From: an uncultured Pirellulales bacterium
GTDB lineage: Bacteria; Planctomycetota; Planctomycetia; Pirellulales; CAYNRE01
Reading direction: 5' to 3'
Length of the DNA stretch: 64,000 bases
Assembly (NCBI GenBank): GCA_964399535.1
Contig: CAYNRE010000005.1
Span: forward strand, 460,371 to 524,370
Positions 32,461-62,336 of the stretch are shown one piece after another. A program made the translations under genes and the position numbers. Each line of letters opens with the position of its first letter. Position 1 is the first letter of the stretch. The notes under the pieces were generated by a model. The model was not told the DNA's origin, did no database searches, and was given only the letters and a program-made list of their open reading frames with translations.

Positions 32461-35112
32461 TTGGTAGCGAAAGCGAGACTTGTGACTTCAGCACCCCGAG
32501 AGCGATTACGCCGCGCATTGGAACGGGCCGCGCTGGCGCTCTTGGCCGCGGTAATGATCTGGGGGGTGTGGCAATCCACGCGGCCGGCACCCGCTCCGCT
32601 GATAAGTGTCGCGCGCCGGCCGACCGTTTCCACGGGCCCCACCGACGCCAGCGGCGAACCGCTTCCCCCGGGGGCCCGGCAGCGCTGGGGCGATCGCCGC
32701 TGGTTTCATGGATCGATCATCGCGAAAATCCTTTATAGCCCGGAGGGGGACCGGCTCCTGACGATAGGCTCGGACGACGCCGCGCGGCTCTGGGATGCCG
32801 GCCAAGGCAACCTGCTGGCCACCTGGCGCGCGACCGGGCTGCTGCCCGAGTCGGCCGCCGTGGCGCGCGGCGCCGAACATGTGGCGGTGGCCCTGCGCGA
32901 CGGAGAGATTCTGATCGGCCGGCGCGACGGAGCCTTTTGGCGGTTGCCCGGCCATCGCGAACCCGACTGGATGCGCTGGGCCCGCGAGGCTCGGCAGCAT
33001 TTGGGCCTGTCGGGCCCCCAGCGGCGCGACTGGGCCACGCGGCTGGCCTTCTCGCCCGATGGTCAAACGCTGGCTTCGGGCGGAGCCGATGGCCACCTGC
33101 GGCTCTGGAGTGTTGCCCGCGGCCATTTGCTCTGCGATTCGCCCGCCCATGCCGGCGAGGTACGAGCCCTGGCCTGGTCACCTCAGGGCGACCGCCTGGC
33201 CAGCGGGGGCGTCGACGGGCGGCTCCGGCTCTGGACCTCGGCCGGAGTGCGCGGGGGGCCAACGTTTCGACAGCCCGGCAGCGTTAGCCAGATTCAGTTC
33301 GCCGCCGATGGAAAGACGCTCCGCGCCGGACCCTGGGATGCGCTCGAAGTGGTGACGGTGAGCGTGCCCGAGATGGAACCGGTCGAGCGGCTGGAAATGC
33401 CGCCGCTCGTGCGGCCAGCCGATTTTGTCTTGCATCCGCGAAAGGACCGGTCGGTCTGGGTCACTCCCATGCGCCAAGTTCACGTGGGGTCGCTTGACAA
33501 CCCGCAGCAAGCCCGCGAAGTGACTCGTTACCATATCAATTACTTCGAACCACTTCCGCTGGCTCTCTCGCCCGACGGCGAACAACTGGCACTGTACGTT
33601 CCGGAAGCGCCTGGGCAAGTGTCGCTCTATGATCTAGTGGCGCCGACTGCCGAGCGCATCCACGACGTCGATCCCATCAAGGACTTCGCGTACCGAAGCG
33701 ATCAACATCCGCGAGTGGCTTTTCGTACCCATCAAGGATGGGTAACGCTGGCCGAACTGACCACCGGCGAACCGCGAAGCCAATTGCGGGCTGCCGGGCC
33801 GCTGTGGGGCCTGACGCTGCTGGCCGACGAGCGGTCGCTGGCCGCCAACAGCGTACGCGGGCCGGGCGATCCGCCCTGCGACGGGGACCTGGGCGGGCCC
33901 ATCTTACGCGTATTCGATCTCGAATCGGGCGAGTCCGGCGGCAGCTTGGCCACCAAGGCCGCTGCTGCCCAGGCCTGGGCTGTTCCCTGGGGGGGCGACC
34001 TGGTGGTGCTGGCCACCCGCCGCGCGGTCGGCCCGCCGCACCCGGACGAATCATCGGCGGCTGATCCAAGCGCCGGTCTCGACGTGAAACCTTCCGGTTT
34101 CGACGTGGAAGTTTATCATCCCGCGACCGGCCAGTGGCAGCCCTCGTGGACGCTTCCTTGGGCGCGGGTCGAAAAACTGGAGGTAACGTTCGATCAACAG
34201 CATCTGCTGTCGATCGGACTACCGACCGCGGCGGAGACACGCAACGATGACCGCGAACACGCCCCGGGGGCGCTGACCGACTCGTGGGCGCTGGCGATGT
34301 GGCGGCTGGATGGCGGCGAGGCCATCTGGCAACTCAAGCTTCCGCCAGGCCGTGTCCTGGAGACTTCGCTCTCGGGCGACAACCGCTGGTGCCTGGTGCT
34401 TCTGGAACAGGCGATCGACAGCCAGCTGAAGCCCGCGCTAATGCCCTCCGTGGACGCCGAGGCGATCCCTTCAGAAACTTCGACCCACAACGCTGCCGAA
34501 CCCACTTTGCAGCGGGTCGTGCTGGTCGACCTGACAACCGGCCAGATCCAGGGCCAGCGCGCCAGCGAACCGGGTCACAGCTTGTCGCCGATCGTGCTCA
34601 AAGGGCAACCACTGGCGGCCTGGATCTTGTCTGGACCGAAGACCGAGCCTAGGAGTCCGGCAGTCGAAGTGCTGGCCCTACCCGGGCTGGAGCCGAAGTT
34701 CGCTTGCCAACCTCCCGACCAAGATAGCACCGCCCTGGGACAGCCGCTTTCGCCCGACCAGTCGCGGCTGCTGATCGGTGGCGCTGGCGACACGATGCAA
34801 TTGCGCTCGAGTGACGACGGCCGGCTGCTGAGCGAAACCAAGGCCGATCGACCGCTGCGCGGACCCGCCGCGTTCACCGCCGATGGTCGCCAGGTACTGC
34901 TCGGCGAGAACTCGGGCGACATTTCCTGCTGGGACCCGGAGACTGGACGAGAGCTTTGGCGGCGCGAGGCTCACCGCGGGGCGGTGGAGCGTATCCAAAT
35001 CTTGCCAGGAGATTTGGGCTGGCTCAGCCTGGGGGTCGACGGCACGCTCGTTTGGTGGAGCGGCGATCGGCCCCAGGTTCCGCAGGTCGAACGGCCAAGC
35101 GGCCAGGATTGA
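32461..35112 (+). CDS. Membrane-anchored WD40 (beta-propeller) repeat protein
   Basis: An N-terminal helix (ALALLAAVMIWGVW) is followed by WD repeats such as LAFSPDGQTLASGGADGHLRLWSV, LAWSPQGDRLASGGVDGRLRLWT and a C-terminal FTADGRQVLLGENSGDISCWD. The start is TTG 32461 or GTG 32479. Confidence 0.85.
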   Translation: MVAKARLVTSAPRERLRRALERAALALLAAVMIWGVWQSTRPAPAPLISVARRPTVSTGPTDASGEPLPPGARQRWGDRRWFHGSIIAKILYSPEGDRLLTIGSDDAARLWDAGQGNLLATWRATGLLPESAAVARGAEHVAVALRDGEILIGRRDGAFWRLPGHREPDWMRWAREARQHLGLSGPQRRDWATRLAFSPDGQTLASGGADGHLRLWSVARGHLLCDSPAHAGEVRALAWSPQGDRLASGGVDGRLRLWTSAGVRGGPTFRQPGSVSQIQFAADGKTLRAGPWDALEVVTVSVPEMEPVERLEMPPLVRPADFVLHPRKDRSVWVTPMRQVHVGSLDNPQQAREVTRYHINYFEPLPLALSPDGEQLALYVPEAPGQVSLYDLVAPTAERIHDVDPIKDFAYRSDQHPRVAFRTHQGWVTLAELTTGEPRSQLRAAGPLWGLTLLADERSLAANSVRGPGDPPCDGDLGGPILRVFDLESGESGGSLATKAAAAQAWAVPWGGDLVVLATRRAVGPPHPDESSAADPSAGLDVKPSGFDVEVYHPATGQWQPSWTLPWARVEKLEVTFDQQHLLSIGLPTAAETRNDDREHAPGALTDSWALAMWRLDGGEAIWQLKLPPGRVLETSLSGDNRWCLVLLEQAIDSQLKPALMPSVDAEAIPSETSTHNAAEPTLQRVVLVDLTTGQIQGQRASEPGHSLSPIVLKGQPLAAWILSGPKTEPRSPAVEVLALPGLEPKFACQPPDQDSTALGQPLSPDQSRLLIGGAGDTMQLRSSDDGRLLSETKADRPLRGPAAFTADGRQVLLGENSGDISCWDPETGRELWRREAHRGAVERIQILPGDLGWLSLGVDGTLVWWSGDRPQVPQVERPSGQD

Positions 35113-35115
35113 TTC

Positions 35116-38100
35116 GTGGACGGACCGGTTCCCGCCATCCGCGATGCGGTGCTGACCTCGGAGAAACCGCGGTTGCCCCCCCGGCTGCGCGCGGTGGGCG
35201 AACTGCTGGCGATTTGCGTGGTGCCGGTCGCGGCCAGCGAGGCGATTTTGCCGGTCATCGGCCAAAAATCGCCCCAGGTTCGGCTGGCCACTTGGGCCCT
35301 CTCGCTGGCGGCCGTGTTGGCAAGTCTGGCCTGGCGACGGCTGCGCTGGCCGGCCATCAGCTTGCTGTTGGCGGCTCTCGCCGCGGCGCAGTTTGGGTAC
35401 GCCTCGCTGGGAATCGACGCGTACAGCAAGCCCTTCATCGGCCACGTGGCGGGGGCGGCGGTCTGCGCCTGGTTTTGGAGCTTGCTCACCTTGCTCGGCG
35501 CGGGCGCGGCGGCCTGGCGACGCGCGGCGCTGGGGGTTAGCCGGGTCGTGCTGGGACTGGGAATCGTTGTTACGCTGGCTGTCACCGGCCTGTTGCTCAG
35601 CGGCGGCGATCGCTGGCTGCGTCCTCCGCCGATCACGCGGCAAGATGTGATCTGGGCGATGCGGCTGCCGGGCGATGCCGAGCCGGGGCGGCGGCTGTGG
35701 CAACTTAGCAGCCGAACCCGGCTCGAAGCGTCGGCCAGCACCACCGATCCGCTGCGCCAGGTGCTCGAGGTGCGGCAAACGCAGCCGGCCATGCAGCCCG
35801 ACCAGGTCGTGCTGCGCCGCGCGGCGATCGAGTTCGACCCCACGCGCGATTACGAGCTACGGCTACGGGCCCGCGGTAGTCCGGCCAGGTCCGTGCATCT
35901 GGAACTGGTCGACCCCGGCCAGACCCAGCCGCCCCTGGACATCGGCCAGGCCGAGTTGAGCCCTCAGTGGCAAACCTTGGTCTTTCCGATCCGCGGCGAA
36001 GTCGCCGGGCAAGCGGGCGGCAGTGCCGATGGCCCTGCGCCGCGCGACCTGGTGCTGTCCCTGGGGGGACCGGCCGGCCAGACGGAAATTACCGACGCAG
36101 TCCTCTCGCTGGTGGCCCTGCGCGAACCGACCGAGATCGTAGCCGACCTGTGGCACGTGGAAACCTCCAATGGAAGCCGGGCGCGGTTGCTGCCACACGG
36201 AGCCGAGCCCGGTAGCGTGGGCGTGGCGATCGAGGCGATTGCCCCCGGTCCGGAAGAAGCGAGCGTCAAACTGGTCCAGGGGGGGCTTGAGCTTCGCGCG
36301 GCAGCGCGCTACCGGCTCGCGCTTCGTGCCCGGGCCGAGGGAGCACGCACCGTTGTCCTGGGCTGGGTAGATACGCAAACCGGCGCCGCGCTGGCCCCCT
36401 GGCAGCGCGTGGATCTGGGCCCCACGGCCACCGAGGTGACCTCTCTCTGCAATCCGGCGACCGGCACGGCAAGCGCGCAACTGGAAATTCACCTGGGGAG
36501 CAGCACGGCCGGCGTGACGCTCGACGCCGCGCGGATCGACGAAGTTCCGCGGCAAACTCCCACCGAGATCGTGCCCGATGGCTTTACGCTCGAGCAAGAC
36601 CCCGGGTGCAAGGCCTCGTGGGCAATTGCCGGCGGGACCGAGCCCGTACTTCGAGTCTCGGTCGAACAGACCATACCCGAGCGGATCGCGGCCGTACGGT
36701 TGGTGCAGCCGGGGCTGGAGCTTACCGCCGGCTGGCCCTATCGGCTCACGTTTCGTGCCCGGGCCGACGGTCCTCGCCCGTTGGCCTGGTCGTTGATTCA
36801 GGGCGACCAGGTCATTCTGCCCGTTCAAACGGCCTGGGCCGACGTGGACCAGACGTGGCAAAGCCTGGAGAGCCAGTTCCTGGCCCCCACCTCGGGAACG
36901 GCCAAACTGCAATTCGAATTCGGTCTGTGGACCGTGCCCTGCGAATTGGCCGACATTCGCCTCGAAGCGCCCCGCAAAGAACACCCCACCGAGTTGTTGC
37001 CCGATCGTTGGCGGCTGGAGACGGCGGCCGAGGCCCAAGCCCACCTGGAGCAAACCGGCGAGAGCCCTACGGCCCTGCGCGTGGTGGTCGAATCGGTGCC
37101 CGGCCCCGAGCCCTGGCACGTGCGGTTGGTGCAAAACCAGATCGGGCTCACCCAGGGGAATCGCTACCGGCTGCGGTTTCGAGCCCGGGCCGATGCACCT
37201 CGATCGGTCGGCTATAGCCTGCTGAGCACGCGACCGGGAACCTACCTGGGGCTGTTCGGCGAGTCGCCGGTGGGCGCGAGCTGGAGCGACTACGAAATCC
37301 CCTTCACGGCCGAGGCCGACGACCCCGGCGCCAGCCTGTCGCTGAACTTGGGGGGAACCCCCGGCGCAATCGAACTGGATTCCCTGCAAATCGTCGCCAC
37401 CGCGCGGCGCTGGCCCAGCGAGCTGGTGCCCGACCTGTGGAGGCTCGATCTTCCGCCCGGAGTCGAGGGGCGGCTCGTGCTTCCCGCGCGGTCCAACGAC
37501 GTGCTTCGGGCCGAGTTTGCCCGCCAGGCGGATACGGCGCCCTGGCAAATCGGGCTCAAGCAGCCGGGGCTAGCACTGCGCGGAGCGGTGCGCTATCGGC
37601 TCTCGTTTCGCGCCCGAGCCGACGCCCCCCGGCAGATGCCCTGCCTGATCCTGGCTTCCCAGGCCTCGCAGCCGCTGATGGAGGACCAGTTCGCGCTCAC
37701 GCCCCAGTGGCAGACCCACTCGGTCACCTTCACTTCGCCTCGGACCGACGAGGCGGCCACGCTGGTGCTGAACCTGGGGGGCGAGGATCCGGCCGTGGAA
37801 CTGGCTGAGCTGCAACTGCGCGAGGAGCCCAAAGAGTCGCCCTTGGCGCTGCCGCTGGGAGATTGGCGGCTCACGGTGCGGCCCGACCTGCGGGCACACC
37901 GGGTCCTCGACGGCGAAGCATCCGAGCGGCTGCGAATCGAGATCGACCCGTTTGGCGACCGCCCGATCGAACCTTGGAGCGTTGCCCTGGAGCAAACCGG
38001 CGTGGGGGTCGAGTCGGGCGTATGGTACTCGGCGACGTTTCGCGCCCGCGCCGACGCGCCGCGAACCGCCAGTTTCGCGATCTTGCGTGCCGACGACGGT

Positions 38101-39009
38101 GGGTTTCTGGGGCTCTACGAAGACCTGAAGCTCACCACCGCCTGGCAAGACTATCGCCTGACCTTTCAGGCCCAGGGCGATTCGCCGAACAGCCGTGCCT
38201 TTTTCAATCTGGGGCAGGCCGACGCGGCGGTCGAGCTCGAGTCGATCGAATTGGCGCGGCTGGCCCGCCCCGCCGGCGCGGTGGCGATCGACCAGCCGCT
38301 CAGCGAGAACCAGTCGCTCGTGCTGGGGGGCCTGCCGTTTGGCCATTGGCGGCTGAGGGTGCGGCCGCTGCGGCAGCTCAGTGCCCGCGTTACGCAGCCG
38401 GCCAACCAGGGCGAGGCGCTGCGGGTCGATTTGGTTCACGGCCAGCAGGGTTCGCCGCCCGACGTGCGGCTTTCGCTCGACGACTTGAGCGTTCGCCAGG
38501 GGCAGTGGTACACGGCGTCGTTTCGCGTGCGGGCTGAAGAGCCCCGGTTGATGCGGCTGAGCTTTGCCGAGCAGGCCCCCCCGTTTGAATCGCTGGGGCT
38601 CGATCGCGCCATACCGGTCACTACCCGCTGGCGCACGATCGTGCTCGAGCTGAGGGCCACGAAAAACACCACGGTCGGGAGCCTGGCGCTGGAGCTCGCC
38701 GGGCACGATGCCGCGATCGAACTGGCCGAATTCGTCTGGCAGCCCCATTCGCCGCGGGCCACGAAGATCGGCTGGGTGGTCAGCAACCTGGTGGTAGCCT
38801 TGATCACGGCCTGGATGACCCGCACCCGGCGGTGGGCGGCCTTCGCCCCCAGCGACGACTGGGAACCGCTGGGGCTGCCCGCGCCGGCCCATTCCCGGGA
38901 AATTCGCTACCAGTTGGGGGCCGAGGCACCGCAAGCCGCATCGCCCCCCGCTGGGCTTGTGCCTGACGCAGCGAACGGCGACGCTTTGGGGCGCGGGCCA
39001 CGGGACTAG
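35116..39009 (+). CDS. Giant bitopic envelope protein: N-terminal multi-TM region, seven beta-sandwich/CBM-like modules, C-terminal TM helix
   Basis: GTG 35116 lies 4 nt after the WD40 stop. About 165 N-terminal residues form roughly 5 helices. Seven modules each carry (R/W)Y(R/S)L-x-FRARA(D/E)-x-PR and a later W-(Q/S)-x-(Y/H/L) strand plus a 'LNLGG....ELD/ELA' strand. The helix IGWVVSNLVVALITAWMT lies near the C-terminus. Confidence 0.8.
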   Translation: MDGPVPAIRDAVLTSEKPRLPPRLRAVGELLAICVVPVAASEAILPVIGQKSPQVRLATWALSLAAVLASLAWRRLRWPAISLLLAALAAAQFGYASLGIDAYSKPFIGHVAGAAVCAWFWSLLTLLGAGAAAWRRAALGVSRVVLGLGIVVTLAVTGLLLSGGDRWLRPPPITRQDVIWAMRLPGDAEPGRRLWQLSSRTRLEASASTTDPLRQVLEVRQTQPAMQPDQVVLRRAAIEFDPTRDYELRLRARGSPARSVHLELVDPGQTQPPLDIGQAELSPQWQTLVFPIRGEVAGQAGGSADGPAPRDLVLSLGGPAGQTEITDAVLSLVALREPTEIVADLWHVETSNGSRARLLPHGAEPGSVGVAIEAIAPGPEEASVKLVQGGLELRAAARYRLALRARAEGARTVVLGWVDTQTGAALAPWQRVDLGPTATEVTSLCNPATGTASAQLEIHLGSSTAGVTLDAARIDEVPRQTPTEIVPDGFTLEQDPGCKASWAIAGGTEPVLRVSVEQTIPERIAAVRLVQPGLELTAGWPYRLTFRARADGPRPLAWSLIQGDQVILPVQTAWADVDQTWQSLESQFLAPTSGTAKLQFEFGLWTVPCELADIRLEAPRKEHPTELLPDRWRLETAAEAQAHLEQTGESPTALRVVVESVPGPEPWHVRLVQNQIGLTQGNRYRLRFRARADAPRSVGYSLLSTRPGTYLGLFGESPVGASWSDYEIPFTAEADDPGASLSLNLGGTPGAIELDSLQIVATARRWPSELVPDLWRLDLPPGVEGRLVLPARSNDVLRAEFARQADTAPWQIGLKQPGLALRGAVRYRLSFRARADAPRQMPCLILASQASQPLMEDQFALTPQWQTHSVTFTSPRTDEAATLVLNLGGEDPAVELAELQLREEPKESPLALPLGDWRLTVRPDLRAHRVLDGEASERLRIEIDPFGDRPIEPWSVALEQTGVGVESGVWYSATFRARADAPRTASFAILRADDGGFLGLYEDLKLTTAWQDYRLTFQAQGDSPNSRAFFNLGQADAAVELESIELARLARPAGAVAIDQPLSENQSLVLGGLPFGHWRLRVRPLRQLSARVTQPANQGEALRVDLVHGQQGSPPDVRLSLDDLSVRQGQWYTASFRVRAEEPRLMRLSFAEQAPPFESLGLDRAIPVTTRWRTIVLELRATKNTTVGSLALELAGHDAAIELAEFVWQPHSPRATKIGWVVSNLVVALITAWMTRTRRWAAFAPSDDWEPLGLPAPAHSREIRYQLGAEAPQAASPPAGLVPDAANGDALGRGPRD
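35690..38740 (+). repeat. Intragenic array of seven ~430-nt (~143-aa) modules
   Basis: The signature motif recurs at about 35853, 36306, 36736, 37162, 37591, 38023 and 38503. The spacings are 453, 430, 426, 429, 432 and 480 nt. Confidence 0.8.
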
Positions 39010-39047: not shown

Positions 39048-39812
39048 GTGCTCGAGAGCTTGTCGATCGTCATCCCGGTCTTCAACGAAGAGGCGACGCT
39101 GGCCGAGGTGGTCGAGCGCTGTGCGGCGCTGCTTCCCGATTTAGCGCGCCAAGGCGAACTGTGGATTGTCGACGACGGCAGCACCGACCAAAGCCGCGCC
39201 ATCGCCCAGGAACTGGCGCCTCGGCTCCCCGGCGTGGGCCTGCTGCGGCACGAGGCGAATCGGGGGTTTGGTGCCGCCCAGCGAACCGGCATCGAGGCCT
39301 CGCGCGGCGAGTTCGTCGTGGTGGTCCCCTCCGACGGACAGTTCCCGCCAGAGGACCTGCGCGTTCTTGCCCGGGCGGCGATCGACGTCGACCTGGTGGT
39401 CGGCTACCGGCAGAACCGGGGCGATGGTTGGTACCGCAGCCTGAAAACCCGGGTATTCGGCTGGGTCATGCGGCGCGGGTTTGGCGTACCGCTGCGCGAC
39501 GTGAACTGGGTGAAGCTGTACCGCCGAACCGCCTGGCAGCGATTGGCTCCGCGGATGGAAGGAATGGGGCTCGACGCCGAGGTGGTGGTCAAGGCCCTGA
39601 ACCTGGGCCTGCGCGTGGTCGAGGTGCCCGTGGGCTACCTACCCCGACGGGGCGGCGTGGCCAAGGGAGATCAGCCTTCGCGCGTGTTGGGTACGCTGGC
39701 CGAACTGTGGCGCCTGCGGGGCGTGGGCGGAACTGCGGGCAAAGCCACGGGCGGGGGCTCGGCAGCCCCTCAGCGCCCTACACCAACCGACACCGACCAG
39801 GAACCGGCTTGA
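39048..39812 (+). CDS. Family 2 glycosyltransferase (polyprenyl-phosphate glycosyltransferase-like, soluble form)
   Basis: Motifs: LSIVIPVFNEEATLAEVVERC, LWIVDDGSTDQS, ANRGFGAAQRTG, VVVVPSDGQFPPEDL. It has a GTG start. Confidence 0.85.
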   Translation: MLESLSIVIPVFNEEATLAEVVERCAALLPDLARQGELWIVDDGSTDQSRAIAQELAPRLPGVGLLRHEANRGFGAAQRTGIEASRGEFVVVVPSDGQFPPEDLRVLARAAIDVDLVVGYRQNRGDGWYRSLKTRVFGWVMRRGFGVPLRDVNWVKLYRRTAWQRLAPRMEGMGLDAEVVVKALNLGLRVVEVPVGYLPRRGGVAKGDQPSRVLGTLAELWRLRGVGGTAGKATGGGSAAPQRPTPTDTDQEPA

Positions 39813-39937: not shown

Positions 39938-40564
39938 ATGACCCGGGCCACGATCATCGACTACGCAGTGGGCAACGTCCGCTCGCTGGGCCTGGCCTTG
40001 GAGCAATTGGGGGCCCAGGTGCGCTGCTCGGACAAGCCCGACGATGTGCGCTGGGCCGAGCGGATTTTGCTGCCGGGAGTGGGTGCCTTCGGCGCCGCCC
40101 GCAAGCGGCTGGCCGAGCCCGAGTTGGCAGCCGCCCTCGAAGAAGCCCGCCAGGCCGGTAAGCCCATTCTGGGCATTTGCCTGGGGCTGCAGCTATTGAC
40201 CCGCCACAGTGAGGAAGGGAATGAGCCCGGTCTGGGTTGGTTGCCGGGCGAGACACGGCGGCTGGATGCCTTTGGGGGGTTTCGGCACCGGATTCCGCAC
40301 CTGGGCTGGGCCGCGCTGCGCGTCGAATCGCTCGACCCGCTGCTGGCCCAGCCGCTTGGCGGCTCGCAGTTTTATTTTGCCCACTCGTTCGTGCTCGACG
40401 GTGCCGCGCCGGAAGACGTATTGGCCACGGCCTGGTACGGACGCGAATTTCCTGCCGTGGTGCGGCGCGGCAACTTGCTGGGAGTGCAATTCCACCCCGA
40501 GCGAAGCCAGCAGGCCGGCCGCGAGTTCCTGAAGCGATACCTCGACGGGAGCGGCGCAGCGTGA
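39938..40564 (+). CDS. HisH-type glutamine amidotransferase subunit (glycan-cluster paralog)
   Basis: Motifs: IIDYAVGNVRSL, LLPGVGAFG, ILGICLGLQLL (catalytic Cys) and GVQFHPERS (His-x-Glu). Confidence 0.9.
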   Translation: MTRATIIDYAVGNVRSLGLALEQLGAQVRCSDKPDDVRWAERILLPGVGAFGAARKRLAEPELAAALEEARQAGKPILGICLGLQLLTRHSEEGNEPGLGWLPGETRRLDAFGGFRHRIPHLGWAALRVESLDPLLAQPLGGSQFYFAHSFVLDGAAPEDVLATAWYGREFPAVVRRGNLLGVQFHPERSQQAGREFLKRYLDGSGAA

Positions 40565-41421
40565 ACCCAACTGCCAATCAGCTCGCGACCGGCCCACTCT
40601 CGGCCGCCGCGCCGACCCCGGTGCGGATCATTCCCGTACTGCTGTTGAAACACTGGGGAATCGAAAAGAGCATCGGCTTTCGCGACTTCGTCTACGTGGG
40701 TAGCCCCGTCAACGCGGCCCGGGTACTGAGCGACCTGGGGGCCGACGAACTGATTGTGCTTGATATTGCCGCCACGCCCGAGGGGCGCGGGCCCGACACG
40801 GAAGTGGTTGCCCAAATGGCGGCCGAGGTGCGGATGCCGCTAACCGTCGGCGGGGGAATCCATCGGCTGGCCGACCTGGAATCGCTCTTGGCGGCCGGCG
40901 CCGATCGGGTGGTGCTGAACACGGCCCTGCACGAATCGCCCGGGCTCGTGCGCGAGGCGGCCGACCGCTTTGGCAGCCAATGCGTGGTCGCCTCGATCGA
41001 TGCCCGCCGCCGCGCCGACGGTAGCCACCAGGTATTTACCCGGTGCGGGCGAGTAGCCACGGGCCGCGACCCGGCCGATTGCGCCCGCCAGGCGGTCGAG
41101 CTGGGTGCGGGCGAAATCCTGGTCACCTCGATCGACCGCGATGGAAGTCTGACCGGATACGATCTGGAACTGGTTCGCACGGTGAGCCAGGCCGTAGCCG
41201 TGCCGGTCGTCGCTTGCGGCGGCGCGGGGAGCGTGGCCGACCTGGCAGCGGCCGTCGACCAGGCGGGGGCGTCCGCCGCGGCGGCCGGCGCGCTGTTCGT
41301 ATTCTGGGGCCCGCGGCGGACCGTGCTGGTCAACTTCCCGACCGAGGACGAGCTTGTCGAACACCTGGGGCGCCAGCGGGTACGGCGGCGCTGGCCGGCA
41401 GTGCCCCGTTGGGCCGAGTAG
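40561..41421 (+). CDS. HisF2/AglZ-type cyclase-like subunit (acetamidino-modification type)
   Basis: GTG 40561 overlaps the hisH-like TGA. RIIPVLLLKHWGIEKSIGFRDFVYVGSPVNAARVLSDLGADELIVLDI matches the LPS/glycan HisF2 type (PVLLLK...) rather than housekeeping HisF (RIIPCLDV). GGGI and the C-terminal GAGS phosphate sites are present. Confidence 0.85.
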   Translation: MNPTANQLATGPLSAAAPTPVRIIPVLLLKHWGIEKSIGFRDFVYVGSPVNAARVLSDLGADELIVLDIAATPEGRGPDTEVVAQMAAEVRMPLTVGGGIHRLADLESLLAAGADRVVLNTALHESPGLVREAADRFGSQCVVASIDARRRADGSHQVFTRCGRVATGRDPADCARQAVELGAGEILVTSIDRDGSLTGYDLELVRTVSQAVAVPVVACGGAGSVADLAAAVDQAGASAAAAGALFVFWGPRRTVLVNFPTEDELVEHLGRQRVRRRWPAVPRWAE

Positions 41422-44117: not shown

Positions 44118-44518
44118 GCTGCACCGTCTTGGCGGAAGAACACCCGAGGCCGGACCGACCGGCCTGGGTGCGGGCACCGCCAGGCCAGCCGGTCGGCGTG
44201 CACACGGCGGGGCTTCGGCGGGACGTCGGTCGGACCTGGCCTTGTGGGCCAACGCCCAAAATGCCGGATCCCCCCGATAGTGCTATCTCCCGAGTGTCTT
44301 CCAGCATAATCAAAATGGCGGCAAAAGCACGCGGTCTGGGAGCGGCAAAACTGGTTTCTCAGGCGGGCGGGCGGCCGGCTCGAAAACCCACCTGCCCGCC
44401 GCCGAGTGGTACACTTACAGTTTCGGGGGGCCTACTGGCCCGAACGTCGCCGCGACACGTCTGCCCAATCGTTCCGAAGGCCAAAGCCGCAAACGTTTTG
44501 GCTGGGAGCCGTTTAACG

Positions 44519-44683
44519 ATGAAGCCCGGTCGGTGGATAGCGCTGGCGATTGCCTCGCTGGGCGGCGGCCTGGTGCTGGCCACCCTGGGGGCGGCCCAGC
44601 CCGGGCCGAGCACTACCGCCAGGACGAACACGGCGAGCCGATTCGAGCCATCTCGAGCTGACCCCTCGCGCGGGCTTCGGTGA
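44519..44683 (+). CDS. Small hypothetical secreted/membrane peptide (54 aa)
   Basis: MKPGRWIALAIASLGGGLVLATLGAAQPG looks like a signal or TM segment. Its TGA overlaps GTG 44680 of the next gene. Support is weak. Confidence 0.3.
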   Translation: MKPGRWIALAIASLGGGLVLATLGAAQPGPSTTARTNTASRFEPSRADPSRGLR

Positions 44684-46998
44684 TTGGTTCTTGCAAGAGG
44701 TGGGGCGTGGAACCCGGCGGCTCGCAACCCTCCTGGCGGCTCACCAGCCGAACGAGCCTGTGCCTGCTGGCGCTGATTCTCGTACTGCGGCTGGGCTATA
44801 CGGCCGCTTTCCTGCTGAATCCCGCCTGGGGTTACCCCACCTGGTCGATGATCGGCGGCGTGCCCTGGGGCGATGCCCGAGCCTGGGACGAATCGGCTGC
44901 CGAGCTGGCGGCCGGGCGCCCGGTGCCCGAGTTTTGGTCGGCCCGGCGGCCTGGTTACGCCTACCTTTTGGGCGCCGTTTATGCCTGGACGGGGCCCAGC
45001 TTCGCCGTCGCCCTGTGGTTGAACTGCCTGGCGTCGGCCGTGGGGGCCTGGCTGGCGGCGGCGGTGGTTGCCCGCGCTTGCAGCGCCCGCGTCGGCTGCG
45101 CCACGGCCCTGTGGTTGGCGGTCGACCCCAGCAGCCTGGCGCAAAGCACCGAGATTATGACCGAACCGGTGGGCTTGGTGTTTCTGATGCTGCACCTGAT
45201 CGCCCTGGGCGATCCGCGTAAGGCAAGCGCCGGGCAGCTCGGGTTGAGCGGTCTTTGGCTGGCGCTTTCCAACAGTTTTCGTCCGCTAACGTTGCTGGCG
45301 CTTCCCGGGGAAATGTTGTTGGTCGCTTGGAGCCGGGGCTGCGGGCGCCGCCACGCGCGGCACTCCGTGGCGATGTTGGCCCTGGGGGCGGCACTTGTCT
45401 TGGTGCCGCTGGCAGTGCTGCAGCGCGCGCAGCACGGCATTTGGTCGCTTTCCGACAACACGGCCGAACATTTCCTGGCGGCCAGCACGCGGCAGTTTGG
45501 CGGTACCTGGTCGCCCGAGATTTACCTGCTGGCTGCCGAGGCCGGCAAGCACACGGTCCGCGAGCGGTACCAGTACTTTCAGCAGCTTGCCTGGCGGAAT
45601 CTGCGGCAAGAGCCCGCCGTGTTCGTCGAAAATGTCGCCCGGTCGCTGGCCTATAATGTGCGCGGCGTGGGCGGGGCGGCCATCGCCTTTCCGTTGGGGC
45701 TGGCTGCTTTGGTGCTCGCCGCGGGATTGCTTTGGCGATCGGGCAGCGAGCGTCGCAAACCGGGGCTGCTTGGTTGGGGGCCGCCAGCCGCCGGCGCGGT
45801 CGTTGCGCTCGTGGCCGCCGGGGGGCTCGAGCAATTCGTCGACGATTCCTGGGGCTGGGCCGTGGTGATCTTGGCCGCCATAGTCGGCTTGCGGCAGGCC
45901 TGGCCGCGCAGTGTCCGAACTGGCTCGCGGAGCGAAAGGGACGGCGCCCTGCCCGGCGTCGATTCGCAGGCCGCCGAACCAGAGGTAGCCGCCCTCGGAC
46001 CCCGGCTGGTGCTCGTGACTCTCTTGGTCGCCAGCCTGGCGGCTTTGGCGCTAATGGTGACGCGAGAAAGCCGGCACTGGTCGTACCTCACGTGGATCGG
46101 GGTCGCGCTGGTGCTAGGTATGGTCGACCAGCTAGCGCGCAAAGTCCAGGAGTGGTTCGGCATCCTGCTCGGCCAGGGTTGGGCCGAAACCGAGCCGACC
46201 GCTGAGTTGCCACGTCGGGAAGCGAGCCGCGAGCCAGTTGCGTTCGGGCCTTCGCTCGGGTCGCTGGCCTTGTTAGGCGCGGTCCTGCTGGCGCTGGGAA
46301 TCTCGGCTGGCCGGCTGGTTTGGTTGCGGCGACATCCTCCCCTTGACCCGACGCGGGCCACCGACTTCCGCTACGACCAGCACCAGGTGCGGCTGCTCAC
46401 CGATCGAGTCGCTCGCTGGTGGCCGGCGCTGGCCCCGGCGCTGCAAGCGACGAGCGGAGTGCCCCATCCGCCCGGTAGCGCAGAAACGCGGGGTGCGTCG
46501 GCGCAGAACCTGGTGGTGCTGGGCATGTTTCCGCGCCGCTATCAATACTTCCTGCCTGCCGGCGGGTCGGCAAGCCAGCTGCCCCAGGCCTTTGGCCGCC
46601 GCGACTACGACCGGACTATCTTCGTCGCCGTCGCGGTCGACGGAAGCGGCGGCTTGTGGGAGGCCCTGGTCTGCTGGCCGGGCCGGTTTCCCGGCCAGTG
46701 GACCAACCAGCCGCTGGCCTGCCTGGGCACGGTTTCGGCCCCCTTCGGCTCGGGTCATCCATTAGTGATCGACGCCGCCGCGCTAGTACCGCTGGACCCA
46801 ACGAAGCGCGCGTGGCGATGGGACCAGGCACGCCTGGCGGCCGTGCCGGCCCATCGACAGGCGATTTACCGGCGACTTGCACCCGGCGCCGCCGCGCCGT
46901 CGACCGAGCCGGGCCCAGTCCAGGGGGACGGCGCGCAACCGCTGGGGGCGACGGGTGCATTTTCCACCCCGGCGAAATTGCGCGCCGCCGGCGGTTAG
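44680..46998 (+). CDS. GT-C fold membrane glycosyltransferase (GT39/PMT_2-like) with a large C-terminal domain
   Basis: Motifs: GDARAWDESAAELAAG, RRPGYAYLLGAVYAWTG, and many helices over ~430 aa, followed by a ~330-aa non-membrane domain. The start is GTG 44680 or 44707. Confidence 0.7.
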   Translation: MIGSCKRWGVEPGGSQPSWRLTSRTSLCLLALILVLRLGYTAAFLLNPAWGYPTWSMIGGVPWGDARAWDESAAELAAGRPVPEFWSARRPGYAYLLGAVYAWTGPSFAVALWLNCLASAVGAWLAAAVVARACSARVGCATALWLAVDPSSLAQSTEIMTEPVGLVFLMLHLIALGDPRKASAGQLGLSGLWLALSNSFRPLTLLALPGEMLLVAWSRGCGRRHARHSVAMLALGAALVLVPLAVLQRAQHGIWSLSDNTAEHFLAASTRQFGGTWSPEIYLLAAEAGKHTVRERYQYFQQLAWRNLRQEPAVFVENVARSLAYNVRGVGGAAIAFPLGLAALVLAAGLLWRSGSERRKPGLLGWGPPAAGAVVALVAAGGLEQFVDDSWGWAVVILAAIVGLRQAWPRSVRTGSRSERDGALPGVDSQAAEPEVAALGPRLVLVTLLVASLAALALMVTRESRHWSYLTWIGVALVLGMVDQLARKVQEWFGILLGQGWAETEPTAELPRREASREPVAFGPSLGSLALLGAVLLALGISAGRLVWLRRHPPLDPTRATDFRYDQHQVRLLTDRVARWWPALAPALQATSGVPHPPGSAETRGASAQNLVVLGMFPRRYQYFLPAGGSASQLPQAFGRRDYDRTIFVAVAVDGSGGLWEALVCWPGRFPGQWTNQPLACLGTVSAPFGSGHPLVIDAAALVPLDPTKRAWRWDQARLAAVPAHRQAIYRRLAPGAAAPSTEPGPVQGDGAQPLGATGAFSTPAKLRAAGG

Positions 46999-47096
46999 AA
47001 TAAACAGAAAGCCGCGGCACGGCCCGCAACGCGGTGAGCGGCTCGCACAGGCGGAGCGCTGCCGCGGGGCCGATCGCGCGAGGCCTCGAATCTGTC

Positions 47097-57561: not shown

Positions 57562-58377
57562 TCAGTTCTGCTCTTCGGGCAGCGGTGCGGCGAACACGCC
57601 CCGCGCCGACCGCCCCCGCGGGCGCTCGCCGGGGATGTAGTCCCAGTAGAAGGTGGGGTCGACCGCGAAGACCTCGACCGCCGTGGGATCGACGCGGTGG
57701 TAGTACAACAGCGACGATTGCGGCCGGGCCAGCACGCAGCCCACCGCCAACCGCTCTCGGCCCGAGCGATTGATACCCGAGCCGTGCAACAACCGCCCGT
57801 CGTACACCACGGCCTGGCCCGGTACCAGGGGCACGCTCCGCAGCCGCTCGGGACAGTGGCGCGCGACCCAACCGCGCCGCGGGCAAGGGTCTCCGTGCGA
57901 GCGGGGAAACGGGCACTCGCGGTGCGAACCCACCACCACTTCCAGGCAGCCGTTCTGCTCGTCGACCGGCATCAGCGGCGTCCACACATTAAGCGTGAGA
58001 TCGGTTGTTTCGTCGACGAAGGCCCAGTCGAAGTGCAGGGCCACTTCCGTGCCGTCGGGCTGCGGCGACTTGGCCAGGTAGTTGGCCACCACGATGCGCC
58101 AGCCGGGCAGCACGGTATCGATGGACGGTTGCAGGTGCCCGGAAATCTCCTGGAAGATCCGGCGGCGCTCCTCGGCGCTGGCCAGATACATCGAGGCTTG
58201 AAACCCCGTCACCTCCGTGGCCGCGCGCTGGTACGAACTGCGCAGCGCGCCGAGAACGCTCGGCAAGGCCAGCTCGACGACCGCGTAACCGTCGCGCTCC
58301 AAGGCCGACCAGAGCGCGCTGGAATCTCCTGGGCTAATCGAGGGGGCCGGCGGCCCTGGCTGAGGCGAACCGCTCAT
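57562..58377 (-). CDS. PhyH-family Fe(II)/2-oxoglutarate dioxygenase (paralog 3)
   Basis: ATG 58377 overlaps the wzt-like stop (ATGA). Motifs: VALHFDWAFVDE (HxD), WTPLMPVDEQNGCLEVVVGSHRE, VVYDGRLLHGSGINRSGRER. Confidence 0.8.
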   Translation of the reverse strand: MSGSPQPGPPAPSISPGDSSALWSALERDGYAVVELALPSVLGALRSSYQRAATEVTGFQASMYLASAEERRRIFQEISGHLQPSIDTVLPGWRIVVANYLAKSPQPDGTEVALHFDWAFVDETTDLTLNVWTPLMPVDEQNGCLEVVVGSHRECPFPRSHGDPCPRRGWVARHCPERLRSVPLVPGQAVVYDGRLLHGSGINRSGRERLAVGCVLARPQSSLLYYHRVDPTAVEVFAVDPTFYWDYIPGERPRGRSARGVFAAPLPEEQN

Positions 58378-59924
58378 GACATTTCCCACTCGCAGTCCAT
58401 GCCGACCAGGTCGCGGATCCAGGTGCGAATATTGCCCGACTGCGAGGGGGGTTCGGTAACCTGGAAGAAATGGGGCCGGCTTTCCCAGCCCACGTCGGCC
58501 AGGGCCGCGCCGGTGGCCGCCTCGCCCAGACCAACCTTCATGGCGTAACGGCCGGCCCGCAGCGACAACCGGTCGATGGTTCCCCGCCAGACATGGCGGC
58601 CAGGACCAACCGAGAGCGTTCGGTCGTCGATACCCGTCAGCACCGTCGCAATATGGGTCGACAGGTCGGCTGTGCACAGCGTGAACCCGCAGACGATGGC
58701 CTCGAGCGGTTCGAACACCTCAAACACCACGAAGACCCGGGCCGGCTCGCCATAACGCAGCTCGCCGCCGCTGGCCGCTTCAATTCCCACTGAGCGAATC
58801 GCCACCGCGGCCGTGGCCAGCGCCGTTTTCACCTCGGCCCGCTCCAGGGGTTCGGCGTCGGGCACGCCCTCTGGGTCCGCGGCGGCGCACCGGGCGACCG
58901 CGCCGACCAGGTCCGCGGCCGGCTCTGAATCGGGTTGTGGGTTGGGTCGCGTGGCGGGGTCGTTTTCCAGATCGCCAAAGTAAATCGCCTCCCCCCCCCG
59001 AGTGATTGGCTCGTCGGCGGTTTCCGGCTGCGGCACGGGTTCGTCGCCGGGCACTTCGGCCGCAGATTCCCACTGGGTGCTGTCCAGGGGCGCCGGCGCC
59101 GTCTGGCGGGCGTCTGCGGAGGTCGAGGGCACCTCGGGCGCGGCGGCACCGGTCAGTTCCGCATGGTCGAGCTCGGCCGAGAGCTCGACGTAAAAGTGAA
59201 TCGCGTCGGTCGCCGGGCCATCGAACACCAGGCGACCGTGATGGATCACGATTGCTCGCTCGCACAGCGTTTGAATGGCCTGCATGTCGTGAGCCACGAG
59301 AATCAGCGTACCCCGCTGTTCGTGAAAGGTTTTCAGGTGCTGGCGGCAGCGGCGGCGGAAGGACAAATCGCCGACCGCGAATACTTCGTCGATCAGGAGA
59401 ATGTCGGGTTGCAAGTGGGCAGCCACCGCGTAGCCCAGCCGTGCCCGCATGCCGGTGCTGTAGGATTGGACGGGCGAGTCGATGAACTCGGCCAGATCGG
59501 CGAAAGCCACGATGCTGTCGAACAATTCGGCCGTGCGGCTCCGCGGCAGGCCCAGCAGGGCCGAGTTGAAGTAGACGTTTTCGCGCCCCGAAAGCAGCGG
59601 GTTGAAACCCAACCCCAGCTCGGTAATGGCGGCGATCTTGCCCTCGGTGGTGACCCGCCCCCGGGTAGGCGTCAGGCGGCGCATCATCAGCTTGAGCAAG
59701 GTGCTTTTGCCCGCCCCGTTGTTGCCGATGATGCCGACGCTTTCGCCGCGCTCGATGGTGAAGTTGGCGTTCTGAACTGCCCAAAAATCGCCCGGCAACA
59801 GCTCGGTGCTTTGGGCCGGCCGGGCAAGCATCCGCCGCGCCAAGTCTTCCAGCGCGTACCAGGCCGACCCGGTAAACCGCCGGTTGTATTTTTTCCAGAC
59901 GTCGTCGACGTGGATAGCCGGCAT
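58374..59924 (-). CDS. wzt: Polysaccharide ABC exporter ATP-binding protein (Wzt/TagH-like) with long linker and C-terminal beta-rich domain
   Basis: Walker A is GIIGNNGAGKSTLLK, the signature is YSTGMRARLG and Walker B is ILLIDEVFAVGD. It has the N-terminus typical of Wzt/TagH (VWKKY...ALEDL...FWAV). About 110 aa of acidic/Pro-rich linker and about 150 aa of C-terminal domain follow. Confidence 0.9.
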   Translation of the reverse strand: MPAIHVDDVWKKYNRRFTGSAWYALEDLARRMLARPAQSTELLPGDFWAVQNANFTIERGESVGIIGNNGAGKSTLLKLMMRRLTPTRGRVTTEGKIAAITELGLGFNPLLSGRENVYFNSALLGLPRSRTAELFDSIVAFADLAEFIDSPVQSYSTGMRARLGYAVAAHLQPDILLIDEVFAVGDLSFRRRCRQHLKTFHEQRGTLILVAHDMQAIQTLCERAIVIHHGRLVFDGPATDAIHFYVELSAELDHAELTGAAAPEVPSTSADARQTAPAPLDSTQWESAAEVPGDEPVPQPETADEPITRGGEAIYFGDLENDPATRPNPQPDSEPAADLVGAVARCAAADPEGVPDAEPLERAEVKTALATAAVAIRSVGIEAASGGELRYGEPARVFVVFEVFEPLEAIVCGFTLCTADLSTHIATVLTGIDDRTLSVGPGRHVWRGTIDRLSLRAGRYAMKVGLGEAATGAALADVGWESRPHFFQVTEPPSQSGNIRTWIRDLVGMDCEWEMS

Positions 59925-59928
59925 GCCG

Positions 59929-60855
59929 TTACGGGGCCTGCTGCGAAGTGCCCGGCCGGGCGCCGGTGGCCGAGCGCTCGCGCTGGTACTGGGCCAGGCG
60001 CTGGGCGAGTTGCTCGCTGGTAAAGGGGGACTGGGGCGTGCACGCAAGTTCAAGACAAGGGCACGCCCTGGGCCGCTCGCCGAGTTGGGCTTCGCGCCAG
60101 TAGAAATCTTCCGCCACGGCATAGGTTTCCACTTCCCGCGGCGAAACGCGGTAGTAGTGCCGCAGTTGGGCCTCTTGGGGAATGCCGACCCCCACCACCG
60201 CCACGCGGGGCACCGCACCCCGGTTAGGTCCCGAGTAATGTAGCAGTCGCGAGTGGTAGATCACCCCCTCGCCCGCCCGCAGGGGCAGTTCCAACAGGTG
60301 GTGCTCGACAATTTCCTGAGCCAGCGGCGCGTACGGCGAGCAAGCGGCATCTCCCTGGCCGTTCGGGCGCAGGTTGTCGCAGAACCGGTGGCTGCCCGGC
60401 ACTACCGCCAGGCAACCCACCTGATGATTGGTGTCGATCAGCGGCGACCAGATCGTCACGCTGGCAAACCGCGTTTCGTCGACAAACGACCAGTCCTGGT
60501 GCAGCGGCACCACGCTGGCGGGTACCGCCTGCTTCACCGCAAAGTTGCCCAGCACCAGGCGGTAGTTGGCCAGGTACCGTGCCGCCGAATCGGCCAGCGC
60601 GGCGGCAATCAAGGCGTTGACGCCCGCGCGGTAGCCGGCGTCCTGGCTCCACAGGCTCGAGTAAAACCCGTCGGCCAGGCGGCTTTCGAGGCGCTCGTAG
60701 CCCGACTGCAATAGGGCCACCTGCTCGGCATCGAGCAGCGGCACCACCACGTAACCGCGCTGGTCGAACTGGGCTTGATGCTGCGGGTCGCGCAGGGTCG
60801 GCCGGTCCACGGGCGGGCAAAACAGGTTCTGAGGTAGCGTCGGGCTAGTGGTCAT
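59929..60855 (-). CDS. PhyH-family Fe(II)/2-oxoglutarate dioxygenase (paralog 4)
   Basis: Motifs: VPLHQDWSFVDE (HxD), WSPLIDTNHQVGCLAVVPGSHRF, VIYHSRLLHYSGPNRGAVPR. Its stop lies 4 nt before the wzt-like ATG. Confidence 0.85.
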   Translation of the reverse strand: MTTSPTLPQNLFCPPVDRPTLRDPQHQAQFDQRGYVVVPLLDAEQVALLQSGYERLESRLADGFYSSLWSQDAGYRAGVNALIAAALADSAARYLANYRLVLGNFAVKQAVPASVVPLHQDWSFVDETRFASVTIWSPLIDTNHQVGCLAVVPGSHRFCDNLRPNGQGDAACSPYAPLAQEIVEHHLLELPLRAGEGVIYHSRLLHYSGPNRGAVPRVAVVGVGIPQEAQLRHYYRVSPREVETYAVAEDFYWREAQLGERPRACPCLELACTPQSPFTSEQLAQRLAQYQRERSATGARPGTSQQAP

Positions 60856-60980
60856 CGCTTGGGTTCACTGGGCGTTGCTTGTCGCTCCGGGCGGGCCCAA
60901 GGCCAGCCTGGCCCCCCGTGCCGCGTCGGAACCACACCCGACAGCAGTTCGTAAGCATCTTGCCTCAGCACCTTCACGTC

Positions 60981-61044
60981 TCGTCAGTTTCATTGCCTAG
61001 CGATCAGTTTCACTGCCTAGCAATCAGTTTCACTGCCTAGCAAT
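60981..61044 (-). repeat. Three tandem 20-bp direct repeats (plus the first 4 nt of a fourth) at the wzm stop
   Basis: The plus strand reads tcgtcagtttcattgcctag / cgatcagtttcactgcctag / caatcagtttcactgcctag / caat. On the minus (coding) strand each unit reads CTAGGCAGTGAAACTGAT(T/C)G. The wzm TAG stop is the CTAG of the first unit. Confidence 0.9.
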
Positions 61045-61852: not shown

Positions 61853-62336
61853 CGCCGGCGCGCGCAGGCCGCGCCCCCCGGCTGGCTCGCACCCGCCGCC
61901 GGCCACACCTTCGCCAGGCACACCTTCGCCGTGCGCAAACTCCGTCCCCCTGGGTTCGCAACCCAGCTCACGGGCACCGAGCGCCAAGGCCCCCGGCGCG
62001 GAACCAAACCACGCCCTTTCCCGACCCCGCGGACTACCCCGCTCGCCGCGAGAAACCCAGAACCGGACAAATCGCCTAACTCAACGCTGGCAATCGACTT
62101 TCGTCTCCGAGTATACTTGCCTCCAGGGTCTGAATCAAACCACGCGACTCAGGCGCCATGACCGGCGCGGGGGGCACCGCGAGACGAAAGTTCGCGGAGA
62201 GGCCAGCTACCCAAGAACCGCCCGGCGACCAAGGCCTCCGCCACGGCACCGATTGCCTCCGTAGGTGAAAACCGCAGTTCGGGCCAGGGCGCGCCGACCC
62301 CGCCTTGCCGATCGCACTTCGGAAACCGGACTGCCC

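Follow-up and report, generated by a model that had tools for sequence, protein, structure and literature searches.

The window analysed here is a stretch of 64,000 nucleotides from an uncultured Pirellulales bacterium (contig CAYNRE010000005.1, positions 460,371 to 524,370 of the forward strand), and the subject of this report is one gene within it, at window positions 35116 to 39009, whose product we call P0001. It encodes a 1297-aa protein in which seven carbohydrate-binding modules (CBMs) of the CBM4 type are strung between hydrophobic anchors, in the middle of a glycan gene cluster. The open reading frame (ORF) is a genuine gene: the identical product was called on three independent Logan assemblies and on one 829-kb NCBI contig, and its GC content by codon position (0.73/0.53/0.82) is like that of the remaining genes of this 68% GC window. 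The start codon is GTG. From the N-terminus, the protein runs through five hydrophobic helices, seven modules of ~143 aa, one C-terminal hydrophobic helix and a 62-aa tail. MutS encoded in the window is 66-70% identical to MutS proteins labelled Pirellulales, Thermoguttaceae or Planctomycetia, which points to a Pirellulales-like planctomycete with no near relatives among sequenced genomes. No further CBM4-like gene was found in the window, where P0001 alone carries the module. A scan of P0001 against NCBIfam gave no meaningful match, and a promoter and terminator scan of its operon was uninformative. The features of the gene are listed below with the evidence for each; HMM stands for hidden Markov model, i-E for independent E-value, AF2 for AlphaFold2 and TM for transmembrane.

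35116..39009, + strand: whole gene P0001, 1297-aa membrane-tethered CBM4-array protein (ORF, third-codon-position GC, Pfam CBM_4_9, independent gene calls)
35116..35667, + strand: N-terminal membrane domain, aa 1-184, five predicted TM helices (hydropathy; AF2 helices)
35668..36126, + strand: module 1, aa 185-337, the most divergent CBM4-like module, without the cleft Trp (column 59 is D) (HMM i-E 3.6e-16)
36127..36558, + strand: module 2, aa 338-481, with neither cleft Trp nor WQxx strand motif (columns 59 and 116 are A) (HMM i-E 7.7e-28)
36559..36984, + strand: module 3, aa 482-623, without the cleft Trp (HMM i-E 2.7e-26)
36985..37413, + strand: module 4, aa 624-766, cleft Trp W667 and loop Tyr kept (Pfam 33.4 bits alone; HMM i-E 8e-45)
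37414..37839, + strand: module 5, aa 767-908, cleft Trp W810 kept (Pfam 34.5 bits alone; AF2; Foldseek)
37840..38274, + strand: module 6, aa 909-1053, cleft Trp W954 and loop Phe kept (Pfam 27.0 bits alone; HMM i-E 3e-40)
38323..38751, + strand: module 7, aa 1070-1212, membrane-proximal (HMM i-E 2.1e-36; ortholog conservation)
38764..38820, + strand: C-terminal hydrophobic helix, aa 1217-1235, followed by TRTRR (Kyte-Doolittle hydropathy 1.43 over 19 aa)
38821..39006, + strand: predicted cytoplasmic tail, 62 aa, with the motif (K/R)EIRY at aa 1261-1265, nt 38896-38910 (ortholog alignment)

A first-pass annotation, made from the sequence alone, had described seven modules of ~143 aa sharing a signature motif, and that description stands. 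A search for the relaxed signature xYxxx[FL]R[AV]R[AG] gives seven matches and no others, at nt 35848, 36307, 36736, 37162, 37591, 38023 and 38506, each within a few nucleotides of the positions proposed earlier. Cutting at the recurring start motif P-(T/S)-E-(I/L)-(V/L)-P-D divides the array into seven units of 142-163 aa. The linkers between modules are very short, and the mutual identity of the seven aligned modules is 27-34%. A non-circular HMM, trained on 300 modules taken from other proteins with P0001 and its two orthologs left out, detected 7/7 modules with i-E values from 3.6e-16 (module 1) to 8e-45 (module 4); because this independent profile recovers all seven, a chance repeat is excluded. 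Two further strand motifs of the earlier description hold in part: W-x-x-(Y/H/L) is missing from module 2, and the LxLGG...EL strand is degenerate in modules 2, 3 and 7. Module 7 is the sole net-basic module (+2), compared with net charges of -4 to -6 in the others.

These modules are CBM4-type beta-sandwiches, placed in CBM4/CBM_4_9 by sequence and fold alike, which agrees with the CBM4/9/22-type identity first suggested for them. The Pfam family CBM_4_9 (PF02018) matches the whole protein over five stretches with 105.4 bits (cut-off 25.9) and an E-value of 3.9e-30. Taken singly, modules 4, 5 and 6 each score above the gathering threshold of this family and module 7 reaches 14.8 bits; modules 1-3 are undetected by it. 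When a profile of the seven modules was compared with the PDB, the best match was 1GUI, the CBM4-2 module of the Thermotoga maritima laminarinase Lam16A (E 9.4e-12), in which the near-identical motif Y-T-I-S-F-K-A-K-A-D-T-P-R gives the shared form YxxSF(K/R)A(K/R)ADxPR. An AF2 model of module 5, for which the other six modules served as alignment, is confident (predicted local distance difference test, pLDDT, 87.6) and all-beta with ten strands, neither disordered nor of another fold class. Its top 11 Foldseek matches in the PDB are all CBM4 structures, headed by 1gui_A (E 1.6e-9, TM-score 0.75), with CBM22, CBM16 and CBM11 structures below them in the list.

The binding sites of CBM4 modules lie on the concave sheet, and a surface Trp is critical in TmCBM4-2 (PMC4175358), a module that recognises glucan chains along internal stretches (PMC3975366). 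In the sequence alignment, W667, W810 and W954 of modules 4-6 coincide with the Trp of 1GUI 'DTWHIQF', and Trp occupies this cleft column in 51% of 345 related modules. The same three residues align with W69 of RmCBM4-2 from R. marinus, a key residue of that module; this equivalence with the critical CBM4 Trp comes from sequence alignment, not from structural superposition. Canonical binding capacity is plausible for modules 4-6 and uncertain for the other four.

The whole P0001 design recurs in two further proteins, P0004 and P0008, in an exhaustive HMMER search of 1.84 billion cluster representatives that returned 1616 matches at E <1e-3 and 44 at <1e-30. P0004 (1161 aa, six modules) and P0008 (1271 aa, seven modules) are 37% and 29% identical to P0001, respectively, in full-length colinear alignments. 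Both begin with a multi-helix N-domain, and in both the array is followed by a C-terminal TM helix and a tail with an invariant EIRY. P0008 sits on a contig of an uncultured Pirellulales metagenome-assembled genome. The features that define the family are a five-helix N-domain, 6-7 CBM4-like modules of which the last is conserved, a C-terminal TM helix and a (K/R)EIRY tail. The N-domain of P0001 is homologous to the N-terminus of P0004 (phmmer E 2e-10), and its phmmer similarity to P0008 was not significant. Module 7 is by far the best conserved, scoring 332 against the last module of P0004 and 268 against that of P0008, compared with 120-260 for other positional pairs. In the tail, the E, I, R and Y of the motif are invariant among the three proteins, which are divergent elsewhere in this region. 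Conservation of module 7 and the tail among the three orthologs suggests a specific membrane-proximal function. The lone Tyr of the tail motif could serve modification or docking.

Other searches returned less. A word-indexed homolog search with the full protein gave P0001 alone among the matches listed, and one with an alignment of module 7 and the tail gave nothing among the matches listed; both reached their limit of 8000 candidates, which repetitive words had probably saturated. A scan of genome contigs with P0001 alone found nothing, one with an alignment of relatives (A2) found only four loci, and a scan of metagenome contigs with another (A3) found nothing. The first-pass annotation knew of no characterised protein with this layout. 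We likewise found none in the literature, but the layout is not unique to P0001, since P0004 and P0008 share it.

Hydropathy bears out the anchors proposed for both ends of the protein. The ~165 N-terminal residues, said earlier to form several TM helices, comprise five hydrophobic stretches (roughly aa 26-50, 55-73, 80-100, 108-134 and 136-165), and an AF2 model of the N-domain, of low confidence (pLDDT 58), likewise has five long helices, spanning aa 22-48, 53-73, 78-103, 110-137 and 143-167. The single C-terminal helix is also present but is not the end of the protein as had been thought, being followed by the 62-aa tail (TRTRRW... REIRY...). The equivalent segments are more hydrophobic in P0004 (Kyte-Doolittle 2.26) and P0008 (1.95), and a basic cluster directly follows the helix in all three proteins. 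Lys and Arg cluster in the first 25 residues of P0001 (five), in loop 2-3 (RRLR), in loop 4-5 (RR..R) and directly after the C-terminal helix (TRTRR), with few in loops 1-2 and 3-4; P0004 has the same charge pattern. With the N-terminus inside, five helices would leave the array outside the cytoplasm, and, independently of this argument, the basic cluster after the C-terminal helix would orient that helix from out to in. Both ends are therefore concordant by the positive-inside rule, from which we infer a periplasmic array with a cytoplasmic tail; the first-pass annotation had also suggested a periplasmic or paryphoplasmic array.

The N-domain matched no family in Pfam or NCBIfam, and hhalign detected no relation to the N-terminal anchors of relatives carrying SGNH hydrolase domains (probability 24%). 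A GtrA-like flippase role for this domain was dropped, as it has no Pfam signal. We also discarded a C-terminal sorting signal of the PEP-CTERM, LPXTG or other sortase type: no PEP or LPXTG-type motif precedes the helix, the tail is long and conserved, and the NCBIfam scan of P0001 gave no sorting-domain match. P0001 (aa ~1213-1240) and the relatives P0010, P0013, P0024, P0034 and P0035 do end alike, with R-x-x-x-(V/I)-(V/L)-N, a TM helix and a basic cluster. This arrangement, shared by many short array proteins, is loosely sorting-signal-like and has no known signature motif.

Beyond the orthologs, a wider set of proteins shares the module subfamily at 30-36% identity and carries between 2 and 19 modules, most of them attached to enzymes; the following counts refer to the top 150 representatives of the search. 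About 18 combine a UbiA-type prenyltransferase domain with 5-19 modules, about 11 have four to five TM helices, 2-4 modules and an SGNH/GDSL hydrolase, and 4 carry modules before an LtaS-like domain of five TM helices and a sulfatase fold. In these last (P0077, P0091, P0112 and P0145), the modules lie between N-terminal TM helices and the LtaS/EptA-like transferase. The UbiA proteins are giants of 1300-3000 aa with 5-19 modules (P0002, L006 5850-14834; P0003; P0005; P0006, L007 10001-15937; P0011; and others); they bear the N-terminal motif NDxFDIExDRxAGK and are located in clusters with family 4 glycosyltransferase (GT4), Wzm and Wzt genes. We know of no description of a fusion of UbiA with a CBM4 array. 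Many related proteins have the layout of signal peptide, array and C-terminal TM helix; in P0010, P0034, P0035 and P0087 a cleavable-looking peptide precedes 3-6 modules and a C-terminal TM helix with a basic tail. Other relatives have neither TM helix nor signal peptide: P0051, P0052, P0074 and P0140 (about 660-680 aa) join three modules to a domain that resembles a sulfotransferase (RSGTT P-loop, recognised by eye), and P0009 (1323 aa) has an unassigned soluble domain with seven. Their modules are presumably cytoplasmic, and the proteins could terminate or modify chains in an ABC-transporter pathway. Just one relative bears a name: P0059, of the SGNH-hydrolase type, is called 'carbohydrate binding domain-containing protein [Planctomycetota bacterium]'. 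A literature search for combinations of CBM4, UbiA and Planctomycetes turned up nothing relevant and no account of such arrays.

The variable copy number is what would be expected were length the selected trait, and it is one of the reasons to consider that the modules are simply rigid beads of a periplasmic strut or envelope layer, which might set a distance or tether envelope layers to each other, with no specific glycan binding. The very short linkers fit such a spacer, as do the four of seven modules without a cleft Trp. On the other hand, modules 4-6 score as canonical CBM_4_9 and keep the Trp, the module family occurs consistently on glycan-modifying enzymes within glycan clusters, and a loop with both ends in the same membrane makes a poor strut. 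We consider this explanation rather unlikely.

P0001 is the second of five consecutive genes on one strand, which code for a WD40 protein, P0001, a family 2 glycosyltransferase (GT2), HisH and an AglZ/HisF2/WbuZ-type protein, and Pfam and NCBIfam scans of the window ORFs confirm the flanking glycan genes noted in the first-pass annotation. The main neighbours are listed below; GT-C denotes a glycosyltransferase of the GT-C fold.

32461..35112, + strand: WD40 beta-propeller protein, ~880 aa, with an N-terminal signal-anchor (Pfam WD40 families)
39048..39812, + strand: GT2, 254 aa, nearest to polyprenyl-phosphate sugar synthases (ArnC, PpgS, AglJ-like), below all family cut-offs (Pfam Glycos_transf_2 E 2.4e-28; NCBIfam)
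39938..41421, + strand: HisH-like amidotransferase and AglZ/HisF2/WbuZ-type protein, a sugar acetamidino modification pair (NCBIfam)
41464-43200 and 43086-44252, - strand: NodU-like carbamoyltransferase and UDP-GlcNAc-3-dehydrogenase-like oxidoreductase (Pfam/NCBIfam context scan)
44680..46998, + strand: PMT_2-type GT-C glycosyltransferase, 772 aa, candidate periplasmic user of a polyprenyl-phosphate sugar (Pfam PMT_2 26.7 bits, marginal; cut-off 26.1)
47034-48632 and 62265-63872, + strand: two paralogous radical-SAM/SPASM proteins (Pfam domain matches)
49499-50338 (- strand), 54150-55049 (+ strand) and 59929-60855 (- strand): three PhyH-family (phytanoyl-CoA dioxygenase-like) genes (Pfam)
58374..61987, - strand: Wzt/TagH-like ABC ATPase, PhyH gene and Wzm-like ABC-2 permease (Pfam ABC_tran, Wzt_C and ABC2_membrane; NCBIfam Wzt/TagH-like)

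The stop codon of the WD40 gene lies 4 nt ahead of the P0001 start codon. An ortholog of this protein is encoded immediately upstream of P0004 (L004 1300-3945; 27% identity over the full length, E 5e-58), and another occurs in the P0010 cluster (L008 1558-4215; 34% identity over the N-terminal 250 aa), which brings to three the loci where a WD40 gene adjoins a CBM4-array gene or is close to one. The propellers of the signal-anchored protein are probably periplasmic, and a periplasmic WD40 protein in a glycan cluster is unusual.

For the sugar modification pair, NCBIfam gave HisH TIGR01855 (E 2.9e-57), NF038364 (E 1.1e-88) and TIGR03572 (E 3.1e-79), the last two just below their cut-offs. Together with the carbamoyltransferase and the oxidoreductase, this pair suggests a polymer with acetamidino-, carbamoyl- and 3-amino-modified sugars. 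Further cluster genes encode a methyltransferase, a second ArnC-like GT2, a WecE-like (DegT) aminotransferase and a YfhO-like GT-C, and GT4, GT9, GT2 and another PMT_2 gene lie upstream of the P0001 operon. In the radical-SAM paralogs the SPASM domain (aa 41-103; 55-117) is N-terminal to the core (aa 139-307; 154-319), the reverse of the usual order.

Related loci have much of the same content. A GT2 and/or a PMT-type GT-C adjoins homologs in L005, L007 and L008, and a PMT-type GT-C and a GT2 lie directly downstream of P0008. One 20-kb stretch around P0010 contains a WD40 gene, GT4, PMT_2, GT2, the enzyme-free array, GT2, GT4, a CBM-SGNH gene and a UbiA-array gene. Around P0002 (UbiA with 19 modules) are GT4 genes and CBM-SGNH, along with the same Wzt/PhyH/Wzm trio as in the window, and the P0006 locus has PMT_2, GT2 and GT4 genes and a small array protein. 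These loci are versions of one recurrent glycan cluster of planctomycetes, in which several array proteins are used. The PhyH gene beside Wzm/Wzt in the P0002 locus (L006 20315-21130) and in the window suggests a recurrent glycan or lipid hydroxylation step.

The neighbouring transferases raise the alternative that the array is itself a substrate, a periplasmic glycoprotein decorated by the adjacent GT2 and PMT-type GT-C in the manner of actinobacterial protein O-mannosylation. A GT2 directly follows P0001 with a PMT_2 protein 5.7 kb downstream, pairs of PMT/PMT_2 GT-C and GT2 occur beside P0008, in the P0010 cluster and near P0006, and the Pro-rich linker at the start of each of modules 2-5 bears the conserved motif P-(T/S)-E-(I/L)-(V/L). 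However, this linker motif is not found in the wider family, the modules contain no Ser/Thr-rich tracts (15-21 Ser plus Thr per module), and the PMT_2 match in the window is marginal (see list above). Lipids or glycans are, moreover, common acceptors of PMT_2-type GT-Cs. Protein glycosylation therefore appears an improbable role for the array.

The Wzt- and Wzm-like genes indicate an ABC-transporter-type glycan export pathway. The Wzt_C match of the Wzt-like ATPase is below cut-off (22 bits); the C-terminal ~250 aa of this protein may be a divergent glycan-terminus-binding domain. Its ORF (58374-60218, - strand, 614 aa) overlaps the PhyH ORF by ~290 nt, and the true start is probably further downstream.

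In Wzm/Wzt-type pathways, polymerisation takes place in the cytoplasm. By this logic the array might instead face the cytoplasm, acting on the undecaprenyl-linked polymer before export as a terminator-associated ruler or in substrate recognition, comparable to the coiled-coil ruler of WbdD or the C-terminal CBM of Wzt. Because the sulfotransferase-like RSGTT proteins and P0009 carry the module with no TM helix or signal peptide, it can function in the cytoplasm, where ABC-transporter-type glycans assemble, and a periplasmic location is not to be assumed from the module alone. The N-in bias of the five helices and the basic cluster after the C-terminal helix nevertheless both place the array outside, so a cytoplasmic orientation would need two violations of the positive-inside rule, and the non-catalytic relatives nearest in design (P0010, P0034, P0035) have signal peptides. 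We give this orientation little credence.

Taken together, we favour the reading that P0001 is a non-catalytic inner-membrane scaffold that binds the polymer of its cluster multivalently for retention or presentation, with a WD40 partner and a contact through its cytoplasmic tail, and give it about an even chance of being right. The five-helix anchor and the single C-terminal helix would hold the seven-module loop in the periplasm, with the conserved (K/R)EIRY tail making a contact on the cytoplasmic side. Its probable partners are the WD40 protein, which is co-transcribed and anchored in the membrane, and the products of the surrounding glycan genes, among them the polyprenyl-phosphate-sugar-type GT2, the GT-C enzymes, the sugar-modifying enzymes and the Wzm/Wzt exporter. 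The array may bind the surface polysaccharide made by the cluster where it emerges on the outer side of the inner membrane, and the bound polymer could be retained there or presented for periplasmic modification or hand-over.

Several observations weigh against this reading. The aligned Trp is kept only in modules 4-6 (D, A, A and P take its place in modules 1, 2, 3 and 7, respectively), and the second conserved aromatic of the family, the Trp of a 'PW' loop (61%), is not conserved in P0001. The predicted topology is based on hydropathy and charge together with the low-confidence N-domain model, the C-terminal helix of P0001 is borderline hydrophobic at 1.43, and the same module occurs in the TM-less, signal-less proteins already described. 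The exact architecture is present in just three proteins, and the evidence from synteny is thin: among these three loci, a WD40 gene is adjacent in 2/3, and a GT2 and/or GT-C gene is nearby in 2/3.

As a sub-case of this polymer-binding scaffold, P0001 might be a chain-length regulator or export adaptor analogous to Wzz and KpsE, setting polymer length or bridging the exporter to the outer membrane, with signalling through the EIRY tail. Predicted TM helices flanking a large periplasmic domain match the topology of the polysaccharide co-polymerases (PCPs), and the cytoplasmic tail motif is conserved. Among the Pfam-scanned window ORFs, which represent part of the genome, no Wzz/PCP or outer-membrane polysaccharide export (OPX) gene was found. 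However, P0001 has no sequence or fold similarity to PCPs, its beta-sandwiches standing in place of a helical domain, and the near-constant copy number of 6-7 in the three orthologs offers no length correlation to assess. This specific role seems doubtful to us.

A broader version of the scaffold reading can be imagined for the planctomycetes, in which the WD40 protein and the array enzymes (UbiA, SGNH, LtaS-like and sulfotransferase) would form one machinery, the CBM subfamily would serve as an address tag for a single envelope polymer, and P0001 would be the periplasmic organiser or length-setting adaptor that replaces PCP and OPX components, signalling through EIRY. We consider it unlikely in this full form.

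In textbooks, CBM4 modules are accessory domains of secreted enzymes that degrade glycans. If the arrays described here do bind the cell's own polymer, they would represent a new way to organise periplasmic polysaccharide assembly. This would be relevant for the Planctomycetota, whose envelope biogenesis is poorly understood and for which no PCP/OPX-type component was seen among the scanned ORFs of this window. The array family also provides a set of CBMs with probably novel specificity, and the enzyme-free, double-anchored P0001 is its simplest handle, with three Trp modules, a conserved terminal module, a cytoplasmic motif and a WD40 partner.

The CBM4 domain itself is ordinary. P0001 shares the beta-jelly-roll fold of TmCBM4-2 (1GUI; PF02018) and the signature Y-x-x-S-F-(K/R)-A-(K/R)-A-D-x-P-R ... 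W-Q-x-F ... L-G. However, known CBM4 members occur in one to three copies on secreted glycoside hydrolases, whereas P0001 has seven and no catalytic domain, is anchored at both ends, lies in a biosynthetic instead of a degradative cluster and has four modules without the Trp. Large membrane-tethered arrays on the biosynthetic side, and the enzyme-free, double-anchored form with a WD40 partner, are undescribed.

In topology and genomic setting P0001 resembles BcsB or a PCP, but it belongs to neither family. BcsB of bacterial cellulose synthase is a non-catalytic periplasmic subunit with carbohydrate-binding beta-sandwich domains and a C-terminal TM helix, thought to guide the nascent polysaccharide. 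P0001 is likewise predicted to be periplasmic, with beta-sandwiches and a C-terminal TM helix. In contrast to the polytopic N-terminal anchor, seven repeats and Wzm/Wzt setting of P0001, BcsB has a signal peptide, two carbohydrate-binding-like and two flavodoxin-like domains, and a synthase-dependent pathway. No homology to BcsB turned up, in searches that included no comparison aimed at it. The PCPs (Wzz, Wzc, KpsE) have a TM helix at each end and a large periplasmic domain, are encoded in glycan clusters and modulate polymer length or export, and P0001 has predicted anchors at both ends and a surface-glycan cluster. Here the differences are an alpha-helical periplasmic domain in PCPs versus seven beta-sandwiches, and one N-terminal helix versus five; a Pfam scan of P0001 gave no Wzz or GNVR match even at E up to 10.

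The C-terminal domain of Wzt (PF14524) is also a beta-sandwich glycan-recognition module for the pathway's own polymer in an ABC-transporter system, but it is a single cytoplasmic domain on the ATPase, whereas P0001 is a separate, predicted periplasmic CBM4 array. The planctomycete array proteins (P0002, P0059, P0010) share with P0001 the module subfamily, the type of cluster and, in part, the same WD40 partner. Most of these relatives have an enzyme domain or a simple signal peptide, and the N-domain, module 7 and EIRY tail of P0001 are shared by P0004 and P0008 only.

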